Shown piece by piece: positions 21,972-27,309 of a DNA stretch of 64,000 nucleotides. The first letter of the stretch is position 1, and every line of letters starts with the position of its first letter. The position numbers were made by a program, and so were the translations under genes. A model generated the notes under the pieces. The model saw only the letters and a program-made list of their open reading frames with translations. It had not been told where the DNA came from and did no database searches. Source of the DNA: a virus; the IMG/VR virus record IMGVR_UViG_3300032053_000003, positions 158,392 to 222,391 of that record; one strand, 5' to 3'.

Positions 21972-22025
21972 CTTAAAACCCCCATAGAAACATTCAATGA
22001 TCGAATTTTAACACAACAATTACCT

Positions 22026-22054
22026 GTTTACAATGAAGATGAATTAGTCTATAT
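22026..22054 (+). promoter_or_regulatory. Candidate sigma-70-type promoter for the rightward acidic-protein gene
   Basis: TTTACA, 17 nt, TATATA, about 300 nt upstream of the 22348 ATG. Confidence 0.3.
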
Positions 22055-22347
22055 ACTATTGGGTAAAGTAGGTTTTTTAGTACTGCTACATGCTGTGAAA
22101 CCCATATCGATGTTGGTACTGGCTTATGAACTTAAGAGACCTGAATACTGTTTTAAAAAGGGGGAGTGCCTCCTAAAAATAGTATATTATGGAAACAGGT
22201 CGGGTGATGGGACAGCTGTTCTCTCACAGGTATCTCTTTAGCTGTCTGCATCACAAACCAAGAGAACAGTGAAACCCATGGAGTGGCTGCTTCAAAGCAA
22301 AAAGAATCAACAAGCTTATAGAAAATAAATTAAAGAGGAGGTAGTTA

Positions 22348-23100
22348 ATGAGTAGTATACTGGAAAGGATCAAGGATGCGTTGGATGACATAGCTGATGA
22401 CCTGGATGATGATGCCCTGAAGGAGGCAGTAGCTGAGCACATTGATTCCTCTGATATCATTGGTGAGCTGATAAAAGAAGATGAGAATATCCAGAATGCT
22501 TTGAAAAAGAAGTTCAAGGAACTGCTTATCAAAGACATTGAAGACATCAATGACTCCGATGATTTGGAGGGTTATATGGATGGCTCATGGGGTGATAAGA
22601 CCGAGAACATCTTTGGTGACGAAAATATCAAAAATATTATTGAAGAGCTAACTGAGGACACTAAAGTTCAGGATATGCTCAAGAAAAAGGTTAAGGAACT
22701 CATCGTATCCCAGATGGATGATATGAGTACAGATGACCTCCCTGTGAATATCTGGGATAAGGAAGAAATTGCTGATCGTATAAAGATCATCATGGCTGAT
22801 CATACCTTCCTTGGAGAGTACACTGAGATGTTCAATAAAGCTTTGAAGAAGGTCATTGTAAGTATGACCAAGGAGAATGATCGTTCCTTTGAGAAGTTTA
22901 TCAAGGAGCACCCCCAGACCCAGTTTATGCTTCAAAACAGGGTAGAGAGTATGATGCAGGATAATGCTTTCCTGGAGGATCTTAGGAAGGCTTTAGTAGT
23001 CAGGGTAAAAGATACTCCAGACTTGCAGAAGACCCTGCTCAATCTGTTGTTTAACAAAACAGCTGAGCATTTGGTAGAGTTGATGTTCAAAAAGGTATAA
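22348..23100 (+). CDS. Highly acidic hypothetical protein, a lone rightward gene inside the leftward block
   Basis: 250 aa, Asp/Glu-rich N-terminus. GAGGAGG SD. Confidence 0.55.
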   Translation: MSSILERIKDALDDIADDLDDDALKEAVAEHIDSSDIIGELIKEDENIQNALKKKFKELLIKDIEDINDSDDLEGYMDGSWGDKTENIFGDENIKNIIEELTEDTKVQDMLKKKVKELIVSQMDDMSTDDLPVNIWDKEEIADRIKIIMADHTFLGEYTEMFNKALKKVIVSMTKENDRSFEKFIKEHPQTQFMLQNRVESMMQDNAFLEDLRKALVVRVKDTPDLQKTLLNLLFNKTAEHLVELMFKKV

Positions 23101-23193
23101 TGTATAAGGAGACCTACAAGACTCACTCCTTTAATGAAACCCAGGATATCATTGAAGAGAGACAGGATAAGCCCCAGTGCCTGTCTCTCTTTC

Positions 23194-23451
23194 TTAAGAA
23201 GTAAGGGCATCAATAAGTTGCTTATATAAAACATTAGCTAAGATCTTATCCTCTTTGCCCTCAAAGGCTTCAGCCTTGTTCTTAGTGAGTCTCCATTTCT
23301 CAAGGACCTCTTCAGCCTCTTTTTCATACATACCCCTATGTATTTCTGATCCTGGTATGTCCTCTTCGTTATTGTAGGGGCATCTCCAGCTATCACACTG
23401 CTCATGTAAGCAACTGGAGCACTTGTCCCCATTACCTTTCATTTCGTTCAT
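23194..23451 (-). CDS. Hypothetical protein
   Basis: 85-aa ORF containing CSSCLHEQC. Confidence 0.4.
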   Translation of the reverse strand: MNEMKGNGDKCSSCLHEQCDSWRCPYNNEEDIPGSEIHRGMYEKEAEEVLEKWRLTKNKAEAFEGKEDKILANVLYKQLIDALTS

Positions 23452-24388: not shown

Positions 24389-24838
24389 ATGAGTAATGCC
24401 AAACGATTAATCAATAAGCTTAGACACTCTGCAGCCTTCCTGAAAACTGAAAATTATAGAGTCTGCTGAAGCTGATGTAGCTATTAAAGCTATCACACAC
24501 TCAAAACCTACTTTGGTTTTCTGGATATCTCCTACAGGCATATTATAGATGCCAAGGAAGCCCACCATGAAAACCCTCCTGATGGGGATCGGTCAGTCCT
24601 GTCTGATAAGATCCATAAGGGATTCATAAGAGGCAGAGCAGCATTTATAGGTGATGTCCTTTACATAGTGATTTATGGAGAAGACAGTGGACAGATCTCA
24701 AAAAGACAGCTTGCTCTTCTACGAAGATCTTACCCAAGAGTATTACGATATTTGATAGAGCAAAAGGACTTGACACAATCCCAAGTGGATTCAGCTAATT
24801 TTATTGATGAACAAGGGAATGAGATGATTTTGTAAAGA
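24389..24838 (+). pseudogene. Possible disrupted (frameshifted) gene downstream of DUF4160
   Basis: A strong AGGAGG-ATG start at 24389 gives only 26 codons. Hand translation suggests the coding potential continues in the two other frames up to about 24838. The ORF track shows no ORF of 60 aa or more here. Confidence 0.25.
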
Positions 24839-25071
24839 GCTACTGTAAACTGAAGGAGCTAACATGATTAAAGACTATGGTAAATCAAAAGCCAGAGAGG
24901 TTATTGATGCTGTACATGATGTTAATAAACGTAAAGCAGAGCTGGAAGAGAGTAGAGCTATCCATGTCTCATATCGAGCCAGACACTGTTTGATAATATC
25001 GACATCGGCAGCGCCACATTTAGGGTTGTTAATTGCTGCAAGCAACTTATCTTTGTGAGGGGTATGCAACA

Positions 25072-26271
25072 TCAAATCACTCCTTTTATACTGAAAATAG
25101 GCGATGCAGAAATCGTGTATAAATCTGAAAGTGTTGTTATTATGTTATCACGTGGCTCGCCTTCTGCACGATTCAAAGCATCTTTCAGGTATCGCTCAGA
25201 AATCTGGTGTGCAGCCCTCTGAATAGGAATATTGCCTGTAAATTTCAGAATAAGTATATCTTCTCTGATAGACTTACCAAAGCGATTGACAAATATCCGA
25301 TAGCGTTCACCTTTCAGGTGAAAGCATCCAAGTGATTCAGCAATATCACGAAGGATTCCTGAGTTGCTGAAGGAGATGCCTCGAACATTAGATTCGTGAC
25401 CAACGACAAGAACTAGAGTACCACCCTCTTTGAGTGTCATGCAAAAACTAACAAGGCATTGCTCCATATCGAGAGCGTATTGAACAACAGTCCGGAATCT
25501 GTTGCCCCGGTTCTTTCTATTAGATCCAATTTCACTTTCAGCAACTTTCAATAAATTAAAACCAAGGACCTCCAACAATGCACGGAAATTCTGATGATAG
25601 TTAAAAACATTGATATACGGAGGACTTGTAATAATGAGATCAGCAGACGCACGGCATTTCTCATGAGTCATTCGAGCATCACATAATTCAACATCAATCT
25701 TCTTGTCTGAGAATGGCAAATTGTATAGATATTCGCGAACGGACATGCATGCTTTATTGAGTGTAGACGACAAGTCTCCGTGTCCGTTGCTTTCTGCACG
25801 CATCAAAATAATGAGTGCTAGTAACATCTGTCTCTTGTTATCCATTGCATCAAATAGAGCGGAGGCACAATCCAAGAGATTCTTGTATTTTTTTCTAAAG
25901 TCATCGCTCACTTCAAACAGGGGCAAGTTATTATAAGACCTGGCTAAACGTGAAACCTTGTCTTGAACTCCATGGAAAAGCTGTGCTCGCTGGTTTATTT
26001 GGAGATTTCCGAAACCTATGAATTTAGACATCGCATAAGCTGCAGGATTTATCTCGCACCCAAGAGAGGGCATTTGCTTAGCGGAGGCCTCCAACAGAAC
26101 AGTGCCGCTACCGCAAAACGGATCAACAATTAGTGAACTGTGTGACGTTAAAGAATCAAGAAGATACTCGATTAGTTGAGGCGTGAATTGACCACGCCAG
26201 TTAAAAATATTAGACCTGCTCTTTGCTGATACATCAAGCATAGTCTGTTCAAGAAGTTCAGCATGCATCAT
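25072..26271 (-). CDS. Orphan amino-DNA methyltransferase (m6A or m4C), alpha-class motif order
   Basis: Motif I DPFCGSGTVLLEA near the N-terminus and motif IV IITSPPY about 165 aa later. No adjacent endonuclease. The gene is visibly CpG-richer than its surroundings. Confidence 0.75.
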   Translation of the reverse strand: MMHAELLEQTMLDVSAKSRSNIFNWRGQFTPQLIEYLLDSLTSHSSLIVDPFCGSGTVLLEASAKQMPSLGCEINPAAYAMSKFIGFGNLQINQRAQLFHGVQDKVSRLARSYNNLPLFEVSDDFRKKYKNLLDCASALFDAMDNKRQMLLALIILMRAESNGHGDLSSTLNKACMSVREYLYNLPFSDKKIDVELCDARMTHEKCRASADLIITSPPYINVFNYHQNFRALLEVLGFNLLKVAESEIGSNRKNRGNRFRTVVQYALDMEQCLVSFCMTLKEGGTLVLVVGHESNVRGISFSNSGILRDIAESLGCFHLKGERYRIFVNRFGKSIREDILILKFTGNIPIQRAAHQISERYLKDALNRAEGEPRDNIITTLSDLYTISASPIFSIKGVI

Positions 26272-26528
26272 TGACTACCTTTATTTAGATAAGGCAACAT
26301 ATTGTCAATATACCATTTCATAATCGAGTGCCCATAAAAGATCTAAAGTAACGTATTATTATGATTTAATTAATTTATTTACTAGAATACTCAATGTTGT
26401 ATTTTCTTTTCATCTTGTTCAAGAACTACAGGGTCTGAAAGGGTAGAGTAGGAAACTGACCTCGTCAAGAGACATCAGATGCTCAAGTAGGGATTTAGTT
26501 TTACTCATTTCCTTTTGGACCCCTCCAT

Positions 26529-26590
26529 TAGCTAAACTTAGCTGTACTTTAGCTAAACTTAGCTATACTTTTTAGTTATACTTTAGCTAT
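26529..26590. repeat. Tandem direct repeats TAGCTAAACTTAGCTRTACTT (x2 plus a partial third)
   Basis: 26529-26549 and 26550-26570 are near-identical 21-mers, followed by tttagttatactttagctat. Confidence 0.6.
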
Positions 26591-27309
26591 CAACTCCTGC
26601 CAATTGCACGATGTGCCCTGAAATTGCTACCATCACTACTGCCCGTTGCATAGGACTCAGAACTATAAAGAGGGACCATATACATTGTCTTACGAATATT
26701 AAAATGGGTGTTTACATAATGAGCCAACATGCTCATCTTCATACTACTGAGGTTTCTGTTCCTTAAGGAGACTTCAGCCATGACCGATGCCTCAAACCTG
26801 TCCATAAGACCGTTGTAGTAGCCTGATATGTCCTGGGGAGAAGTATACCTATGTTTTGAAAGGTTGTCTTCTATGTGCCTTCTCATAAAAACCAAAACAT
26901 GCTTAAAAACCTCAACATCACTTGGAAAGCCAAGGATCTTTACATGTTCATACGAAAATACGATCTCAACTTCGTATAACCTGGCAAGAGTAGAGATCAG
27001 GTCAGTTATCCAAGCAGCCAGCTCTGAACCTGGATATTTGTAATGGACTTCAATGATATCCGAAAGATTCAGTTCAAAATCTTCAGCTATGACTACACTG
27101 CTACCATTGGAATGGGAGGTAGGAGTAGAAGAGCTGTGATGGGTATGAGTAGACTTCTTAGCCATGCCCAGGTCTTGCATGGTAAGGTTATGCTCATCAA
27201 GAAGCTTTTTGAGCATAGCTGATGCTGCTAACATCTCTCCCTCGACTGGGCTGCTCATAAGGGCAGCAACCTTCTTTGCCTTCAAAATTAATTTTTCTCT
27301 CTCGGTCAT
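26590..27309 (-). CDS. Hypothetical protein
   Basis: True start MTEREK at 27309 behind AGGAGA. The ORF track's GTG extension lies inside the promoter motif. Confidence 0.5.
   Translation of the reverse strand: MTEREKLILKAKKVAALMSSPVEGEMLAASAMLKKLLDEHNLTMQDLGMAKKSTHTHHSSSTPTSHSNGSSVVIAEDFELNLSDIIEVHYKYPGSELAAWITDLISTLARLYEVEIVFSYEHVKILGFPSDVEVFKHVLVFMRRHIEDNLSKHRYTSPQDISGYYNGLMDRFEASVMAEVSLRNRNLSSMKMSMLAHYVNTHFNIRKTMYMVPLYSSESYATGSSDGSNFRAHRAIGRS

Follow-up and report, generated by a model that had tools for sequence, protein, structure and literature searches.

Phages that carry orphan methylases cognate to a restriction enzyme are a known form of counter-defence (PMC10286901). In the closest described cases, Lactococcus phage phi50 (LlaI of pTR2030) and Bacillus phage SPR, a virulent or large phage has a methylase of clear bacterial restriction-modification origin without a working endonuclease, which presumably protects the phage DNA from the cognate enzyme (PMC10286901). 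Here we describe a locus that shares both features, found in a 64,000-nt stretch of viral DNA (positions 158,392 to 222,391 of IMG/VR virus record IMGVR_UViG_3300032053_000003; hereafter the window, with positions counted from its first letter). This phage has taken up the methylase half of a bacterial restriction-modification (R-M) operon, together with a 39-codon stump of its endonuclease gene, inside a rearranged patch of the genome, and we consider it likely that it uses the methylase for counter-defence by self-methylation.

The methylase cassette and its endonuclease vestige

The gene at 25072..26271 (minus strand) encodes an intact 399-aa amino-DNA-methyltransferase, as a preliminary description of this DNA had recognised from its DPFCGSGT and SPPY motifs. 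The protein has more than 4000 homologues and matches Pfam N6_N4_Mtase (PF01555) with 51.7 bits (cut-off 26.7), a match that covers only the motif I end of the profile. Motif I (DPFCGSGT, residues 50-57) is followed by a helical insert and then by motif IV (TSPPY, residues 215-219); both motifs are invariant or nearly so in a 34-sequence family alignment, and the methylase carries all of the more than 80 invariant columns of this alignment, including DPFCGSGT and TSPPY-NVFNYHQN. A confident AlphaFold model (predicted local distance difference test score 90.5) shows a Rossmann core with five helices inserted between motifs I and IV. A Foldseek search of this model against the PDB returned only generic Rossmann methyltransferases (template modelling score ~0.3) and no close solved structure, so that the choice between N4-cytosine and N6-adenine is not decided by structure. 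Neither the methylase nor the endonuclease protein has a homologue among 50,697 GenBank phage records, and in IMG/VR the relatives of the methylase are only 37-41% identical and lie on five contigs. No NCBIfam family was matched by the methylase, the endonuclease, or the DUF4160-like and acidic proteins encoded nearby.

Directly downstream, a reading frame whose start overlaps the methylase stop (ATGA) preserves the first 39 codons of a restriction endonuclease gene (24956..25072, minus strand). This vestige is 79% identical to residues 1-39 of a 297-aa PF09549 (RE_Bpu10I) protein encoded 3' of the methylase in the bacterial contig L001 (E-value 5e-18 in the sub-region search and 6e-16 for the whole window). 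The homology ends abruptly at 24956, and nothing more of the endonuclease was found within the 64-kb window. In the bacterial operons of L001-L003 the methylase gene is followed directly by the 297-aa PF09549 endonuclease gene with an ATGA overlap, and in reference genomes of many phyla the full endonuclease lies directly downstream of the methylase in 76 of 80 loci; three of the other four have no room for it on the contig. The donor endonuclease is a full-length PF09549 protein (232 bits) closest to BbvCI R2 (E 1e-32), and the surviving 39 codons lie N-terminal to, and outside, the Pfam endonuclease domain. With no complete PF09549 gene beside its methylase, the phage locus is an orphan derived from such a system. 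The view that the methylase lacks a restriction partner thus holds for a complete endonuclease in the window, but overlooks the 39-codon vestige at 25072-24956.

The captured fragment spans 24956-26320 (1.37 kb) and comprises the methylase gene, about 50 nt of upstream DNA and the first 39 endonuclease codons. Its nucleotide identity is 86% to L003 over 26320-24960 and 74% to L001/L024 over 26272-24956; L001/L024 is an 881,707-bp chromosome contig of a deltaproteobacterial metagenome-assembled genome, and L002 and L003 are short contigs. The homology to L003 (86%) extends beyond the gene to 26320, and this co-transferred upstream DNA (26272..26320, minus strand) includes an AAGG ribosome-binding site and a TTGACA at 26308-26303. 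Because of the 74-86% identity to bacterial R-M operons and the foreign CpG and GCG content, the methylase gene is horizontally acquired from a bacterial type II R-M operon, in agreement with the acquisition proposed before.

The whole window has a GC content of 0.407 and an unusually low CpG observed/expected ratio of 0.25. The methylase gene had been described as richer in both CpG and GC; its CpG ratio of 0.87 (99.7th percentile of 1.2-kb windows) bears out the former, whereas its GC content of 0.410 (55th percentile) contradicts the latter. For the cassette 24956-26320 the CpG ratio is 0.85 compared to 0.23 in the backbone, at equal GC content (0.41). The difference is largest for the trinucleotides GCG and CGC: 22 of the 47 in the window fall into the 1365-bp cassette and 25 into the 62.6 kb of backbone, corresponding to 0.95 and 0.02 of the expectation from base composition (0.13 for the backbone after dinucleotide correction). 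The strings given as examples in the preliminary description (gcgatgcag, cgtggctcgcc, gccgctaccgc) are exactly motifs of this GCG/CGC type. Elsewhere in 22000-26600 the CpG ratio is mostly 0.2-0.3, with 0.43 in a 324-bp DUF4160-like open reading frame (ORF) and 0.65 in a 140-bp filler; GCG and CGC are missing from both 24089-24955 and 26321-26460, and the compositional limits coincide with the homology limits of the cassette. Unusual composition, claimed for the span 22000-26600, therefore applies to 24956-26320 alone and not to the span as a whole, and when GC and CpG ratio are followed across the span it is CpG, not GC, that deviates in the cassette.

A branch analysis of the window against L003, with L001 as outgroup, revealed 96 substitutions on the window branch and 47 on the L003 branch. 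The ratio of non-synonymous to synonymous substitution rates (dN/dS) versus L003 is 0.16, and codons changed on the window branch only include 41 synonymous and 10 non-synonymous cases, which indicates purifying selection on the methylase. Changes from GC to AT number 55 on the window branch compared to 19 for L003; 9 of 32 ancestral CpG dinucleotides were lost versus 1 of 24, and 7 of 15 ancestral GCG/CGC motifs versus 0 of 8, all by CpG to TpG or CpA transitions. The cassette now holds 22 GCG/CGC motifs, where each homologue has 40. Judged by these substitutions, it is being ameliorated toward the phage composition and is foreign, though not brand new; the "recent" acquisition suggested before can be kept in a relative sense only, given the losses among ancestral GCG/CGC and CpG.

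SPPY is typical of N4-cytosine methylases, and the TSPPY motif of the methylase hints at N4-cytosine as its target base. The single-gene donor endonuclease is related to BbvCI R2 and to the homodimeric enzymes Bsu36I (CC↓TNAGG) and BlpI (GC↓TNAGC) (PMC6326814), and a 7-bp palindrome of the form xCTNAGx is therefore expected and is probably the cognate site. GCTNAGC occurs 9 times in the phage (10 expected) and CCTNAGG 13 times (19.3 expected); neither these two nor CCTNAGC is significantly avoided by the phage, and the specificity is not revealed in this way. As the candidate sites are not avoided, an unmethylated genome would be cut many times and protection would matter.

Inversion and gene fragments around the cassette

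Two exactly complementary fragments of one DUF4160-like gene lie on either side of the cassette and on opposite strands. The gene was therefore split by an inversion, whose breakpoints are 24088/9 and 26460/1 and which also beheaded a backbone gene. The 3' part of the DUF4160-like gene (97 codons) lies inverted at 24089..24380 (plus strand), and 24089 is the exact position from which its DNA is homologous to the phage contigs L022/L023 (87%) and L018/L019 (75%). In the antisense of the truncated neighbour its ORF has acquired a new start, either ATG (24072) or TTG (24057); the homologues have 110-119 aa, with 13-18 additional N-terminal residues (MSKAKSKDLLEHLLSLNEM...). The corresponding 5' end was left behind at 26461..26508 (minus strand): 16 codons, MSKTKSLLEHLMSLDE, with a GGAGG ribosome-binding site upstream, in backbone orientation and directly after a tandem repeat and the gene of a 239-aa protein. 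This stranded head aligns to positions 876-929 of L022 and ends at the very codon where the fragment at 24089 resumes; only 1 of 3196 scanned 80-nt windows reached its alignment score. The product had been called a DUF4160 protein, and its DHDPPHVHY motif agrees with this, yet the Pfam match (PF13711, 33 residues, E 1.5e-4) stays below the cut-off (22.3 versus 23 bits), so that DUF4160-like is the better term. No PHROG or NCBIfam match was found, and the match of a paralogue in L022 to DUF4160 is likewise faint.

The beheaded gene is a 5'-truncated remnant at 23750..24088 (minus strand), homologous from residue 35 onwards to a 149-aa protein of the related phage contig L014 (tblastn 35% identity, E 6e-15, minus strand 24088-23753). 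Homology ends at 24088, which corresponds to a loss of the first ~34 codons; the frame is open from 24139 to 23750 and offers no ATG, GTG or TTG before 23887. The inverted segment 24089-26460 (2.37 kb) is made up of 867 bp with native small genes (24089-24955), the cassette, and an AT-rich filler of 140 bp (26321..26460, GC 0.30) between cassette and breakpoint. The filler has no homology to any compared locus and, by eye, no open frame in the three plus-strand frames. The preliminary description had missed the endonuclease vestige, the inversion that splits the DUF4160-like gene and the truncated gene at 23750-24088 alike.

Independent assemblies from different samples and assemblers (L004, L005, L006, L007 and L009) cover the junctions at 100% identity: 24088/9 is contained in L004 and L009, 24955/6 in L004 and L005, and both 26320/1 and 26460/1 in L004, L005, L006 and L007. 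The contigs L006 and L007, from other samples, both end at 26239 inside the methylase gene, at the point where its DNA turns highly conserved with bacterial homologues; donor-like bacteria could branch the assembly graph there. Contigs of sample ERZ27247880 stop at 24302 and restart at 24623, bracketing both lesions of the pseudogene described below, which could reflect polymorphism. We also observed that a CCTAAGG site (Bsu36I-type) at 24084-24090 straddles the junction 24088/9; with 13 such sites per 64 kb the coincidence is unlikely, but it was spotted after the fact. Moreover, many small genes of this phage group share a leader, MSKAK...L(N/D)EMA (at 26461-26508 and 24389, and in L014, L018 and L022). 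The DUF4160-like gene is broken exactly at the end of this leader, which could act as a recombination point for swaps of small genes.

The ORF-less stretch next to the inverted DUF4160-like fragment had been interpreted as a decayed gene, and this is borne out by a pseudogene with two frameshifts at 24389..24835 (plus strand), from an uncharacterised family of ~100-160 aa. The frame is thrown off by a 7-bp tandem duplication (CTGAAAA, 24440-24446 and 24447-24453) and restored by the loss of 1 nt between 24539 and 24540. For the open part (24488-24832) 32 homologues were found, the best of them with 73% identity (E 2e-39), the N-terminal part of the family is found upstream in two other frames, and after repair the translation has 146 aa and can be aligned with 13 family members from end to end. 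Reassignment of stop codons was considered and rejected, as the three stops fall within a 28-codon out-of-frame segment between the two frameshifts and the repaired frame can be aligned over its full length. Nothing relevant turned up when the locus was scanned for tRNAs and with Rfam, so that the stretch is not an RNA gene either. The family has no Pfam or PDB match; its members (P0132-P0163) share the motif ITHSxPxLVFWxxPxGxxIDAxxAHHxNPPxGDRS...RGRA...YIVIYG, and some of them have an FHA, sigma-70 region 4 or RF-1 domain as a fusion partner. Next to the pseudogene, a chimeric 64-aa ORF (24864..25058, plus strand) with a GGAG ribosome-binding site begins with 31 native codons (MIKDYGKSKAREV...) and continues in the antisense of the endonuclease vestige; its two parts meet at 24955/24956, where the cassette homology ends.

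The variable locus in its phage backbone

Among the products of the large ORFs around the methylase locus are a split DNA polymerase, proteins resembling the DnaB helicase, SbcC and the UvsX recombinase, and two further helicases. The exact 239-aa protein adjoining the locus is also encoded on a contig of 237,444 bp, the longest such contig. The window therefore represents the replication module of a jumbo phage that has not been cultured. An NAD-dependent ligase is also among its Pfam matches, and most of its genes are on the minus strand. Megablast of 21-30 kb against the 50,697 GenBank phage records detected no relative, and single-protein scans of IMG/VR with the 239-aa protein and with the ligase gave zero matches.

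Conservation analysis with L014 (9.1 kb) showed which of the neighbouring genes belong to the backbone. In L014 the ligase gene (72% identical) is followed by the genes of a 128-aa protein (75%), of the homologue of the 239-aa protein (38%), and of proteins of 75, 149, 143, 115 and 164 aa, and then by an opposite-strand 255-aa gene and a 231-aa gene. The window has a 250-aa acidic protein gene at 22348..23100 (plus strand; isoelectric point 4.53, 59 Asp and Glu residues, CpG ratio 0.24), noted before as a lone rightward gene, which is 46% identical (E 8e-60) to the 255-aa gene and has the same position and likewise the opposite orientation to its neighbours. The 96-aa Cys-rich gene (23448..23738, minus strand) is 73% identical to residues 1-86 of the 164-aa gene and is followed by an 85-aa gene (23194-23451), and a 221-aa gene is 79% identical to the 231-aa gene. 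Since they are conserved in this syntenic relative, the acidic, 96-aa and 221-aa genes are, by sequence, backbone. The proposed single 4.6-kb cassette is thereby contradicted: the synteny comparison suggested along with it places the acidic and 96-aa genes at the same locus in L014, so that they are not part of the acquired DNA. In composition the DUF4160-like gene and the pseudogene resemble the backbone, and they have relatives in related phages.

The gene of the 239-aa protein (239/249 aa; 26590..27339, minus strand; PHROG 421, weak DUF7168 match of 23.6 bits versus a cut-off of 25.5) forms the other edge of the locus. Two relatives, both distant, were available for comparison here, their 239-aa counterparts being 38% (L014) and 77% (L010) identical. 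On the 3' side of this gene L014 and the closer relative L010/L011 each have different genes, and neither has the cassette there, in line with the earlier description of this interval as a hotspot of gene flux. P0132, which is the pseudogene's closest homologue, forms a fusion with a homologue of the 143-aa gene of L014; these small genes therefore circulate in the region within the phage group.

The spacer that separates the stranded gene start from the 239-aa gene contains a tandem repeat (26528..26590; Tandem Repeats Finder scores 66-81), which had been reported at 26529-26590 and is real, with a basic period of 10-11 nt and ~5.7 copies of TTAGCTAWAC(T). In this array TTAGCT(A/G)(A/T)AC(T) occurs six times at 10-11 nt spacing, in helical phase as would be expected of a protein-binding repeat array (iterons or operators), and two of the copies contain a perfect palindrome, TTAGCTAA. 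No copies were found elsewhere in the window or in L010, L014 or L022. As RNA, the repeat could form a 15-bp hairpin, with a z-score of only -1.3.

A sigma-70-like promoter had been assigned to the acidic gene, but it failed a consensus scan, in which the region yielded 13 matches with 13.9 expected by chance; by eye, a weak TTTACA-17-TATATA can be seen at 22027-22055. No terminator was found for the cassette. A conserved intergenic motif of ~40 nt, TTGTACAAACTGCTGGGGTGAAAACCGTTATAGG, is present upstream of six leftward genes (6708-6745, 13610-13661, 14686-14728, 19645-19695, 27311-27355 and 29676-29721, minus strand) and absent before the methylase gene. The motif is probably a phage-specific promoter, and its copy at 27311-27355 precedes the 239-aa gene.

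The near-total avoidance of GCG/CGC and CCGG in the backbone, shared by L014, is the most unusual observation made, although it does not concern the methylase locus itself. When the cassette is left aside, the backbone contains no GCGC, no CGCG and 3 CCGG sites (3% of expectation), its remaining CpG contexts are depleted 2-4-fold only, and L014 has zero GCG/CGC in 9.1 kb. A rather doubtful suggestion is that the avoidance reflects a host defence or nuclease reading a 3-4-nt CG-containing motif, or a motif-directed deamination; classical palindromic restriction sites would explain neither. If this was true, the cassette would be a natural probe of the pressure on GCG/CGC, with 22 motifs left and losses by CpG to TpG or CpA transitions only.

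Several other features of the window were observed. The DNA polymerase at 37993-40798 (minus strand) is split between two neighbouring ORFs (426 and 512 aa) that overlap and match consecutive parts of one PHROG polymerase profile. An 892-aa protein (30581-33259, minus strand) gave matches to the shoulder domain of the Major Vault Protein (72 bits) and to a vault repeat (35 bits). Another solitary rightward gene (35627-36172, plus strand) encodes a small protein resembling S-adenosylmethionine-dependent methyltransferases, with an RrnaAD match of 25.5 bits, barely above the cut-off of 24. The gene of a 176-aa protein without Pfam match (6175-6705, minus strand) has the second-highest CpG ratio in the window (~0.67) and no GCG/CGC, the sole one in the CpG-elevated stretch 6300-6900 lying just outside the gene at 6789.

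Alternative explanations and comparison with known systems

The structure of the locus can be accounted for as follows. A fragment of an R-M operon was captured in the variable interval 3' of the 239-aa gene, and after the inversion of 24089-26460 the methylase gene has the orientation of backbone transcription. Its transcription could start from the ~40-nt motif at 27311-27355 and/or from the co-transferred upstream DNA. The methylase is predicted to modify phage DNA at the site of the cognate endonuclease, and progeny would be protected in hosts that carry the cognate, widespread R-M pair. Within the inverted native piece one gene has since decayed by two frameshifts and another is cut at the edge of the cassette, and the cassette itself would slowly be reshaped toward the CpG-poor, GCG-free composition of the phage. 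Self-methylation against the cognate host endonuclease is thus the likely function, as far as it can be deduced from these comparisons, and of the roles proposed the anti-restriction one, already put forward in the preliminary description, was judged the most plausible.

Several points weigh against this account. That hosts of the phage carry the cognate R-M pair is a presumption, and the target site and base of the methylase are deduced solely from its partner family and from SPPY. The lack of a complete endonuclease gene refers to 64 kb of a genome of ~237 kb. The TTGACA upstream of the methylase has a suboptimal 15-nt spacer to TAAATA, in a region where scan matches are at the level of chance. 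Substitutions accumulate on the window branch about twice as fast as on that of L003, and neighbouring genes have decayed, so relaxed selection on the methylase is possible. The head of the truncated backbone gene is not adjacent to 26460, unlike in a simple two-break inversion, and the rearrangement must therefore have taken more than one step, with the capture either accompanied by a deletion or followed by the inversion. Finally, no un-inverted or cassette-free variant was found in the metagenome and viral contig collections, and no carrier of the B-side sequence either, a weak negative in that these also missed the known contig L006.

Among neighbours that are truncated (two genes), frameshifted (the pseudogene) or reduced to a stump (the endonuclease gene), the methylase could also be a functionless passenger that is heading for decay and was captured too recently to show it; the doubled substitution rate of the window branch and the lack of a homologue in the 50,697 GenBank phage records would fit such a passenger. 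However, all 399 codons form an intact frame with every invariant family residue kept, the excess of synonymous changes (41 versus 10, dN/dS 0.16) argues for constraint, 45% of the GCG/CGC motifs were lost without one disabling mutation, and the gene is identical in contigs of several samples. We therefore regard the passenger as unlikely, albeit as an alternative to be reckoned with. Orphan methylases can have regulatory roles, and the position of the gene within the replication module, co-oriented with it, would suit a function in the biology of the phage itself, such as replication timing, packaging or expression (as for Dam in some phages), rather than evasion. Such a role is quite improbable for a member of a cellular family that is paired with an endonuclease in 76 of 80 loci and that, as the stump shows, came from such a pair, and the related phages do without the methylase, hence it is not conserved replication machinery.

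The idea that the entire 22.0-26.6 kb region was recently acquired as a single accessory island or moron cassette draws on its mixed strands, its small genes of unknown function, the orphan methylase and the repeats at its edge. It has a very small chance of being right, because the acidic, 96-aa and 221-aa genes are kept in place and orientation in L014, the composition outside 24956-26320 matches the backbone, and the plus-strand orientation of 24089-24955 is explained by the inversion. Lastly, an assembly chimera of phage and bacterial reads might be suspected from the two contigs ending at 26239 and from the breaks at 24302 and 24623 in one sample. With all four junctions covered by independent assemblies at full identity, and a cassette that is 14-26% different from every bacterial homologue found and shows phage-directed amelioration, a chimera is hardly credible.

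How a phage obtains an orphan methylase is documented here, since the donor operon, both capture junctions, the endonuclease stump and ongoing amelioration can be read in one locus. The nearest cellular relatives with a full R-M pair may point to donor or host lineages of the jumbo phage. The locus is also prone to misannotation: one gene is split, one has lost its head, one ORF is chimeric and the pseudogene contains two frameshifts. It represents a known type of counter-defence that is unusually well documented and involves no new mechanism, and the current understanding of phage counter-defence is unchanged by it.

Among characterised R-M systems, those of Bpu10I, BbvCI, Bsu36I and BlpI (PF09549; structure 6EG7) are the relatives of the donor, whose endonuclease is a full-length member of the family and retains the catalytic E-C-K block. 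Bpu10I and BbvCI have two subunits and two 5-methylcytosine methylases; in contrast, the donor system consists of one endonuclease gene and one amino-methylase (SPPY). After the catalytic Lys, the donor sequence reads D-K-T-M, compared to E-R-N-M in BbvCI R2 and D-K-N-K in R1 (PMC6326814).

In-situ decay of R-M systems in bacteria likewise leaves a methylase beside an endonuclease remnant, and orphan methylases from such decay in bacterial genomes are reportedly treated by Seshasayee et al. in 2012. In the phage, however, the endonuclease gene was cleanly truncated at a recombination junction and did not erode gradually. Morons and hypervariable regions of large phages resemble the locus in that a foreign gene arrives with its own upstream DNA at a variable position; here, the co-transferred TTGACA is at most a putative promoter element, no terminator was found, and the insertion is combined with a local inversion. 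Phage-borne orphan methylases taken from host R-M systems are said to be reviewed by Murphy et al. in 2013. Compared to phi50 and SPR, the methylase family described here is not represented in the 50,697 GenBank phages and its function is predicted from sequence, and the start of the donor endonuclease is still attached to the methylase gene, which fixes both the origin and the direction of the capture.

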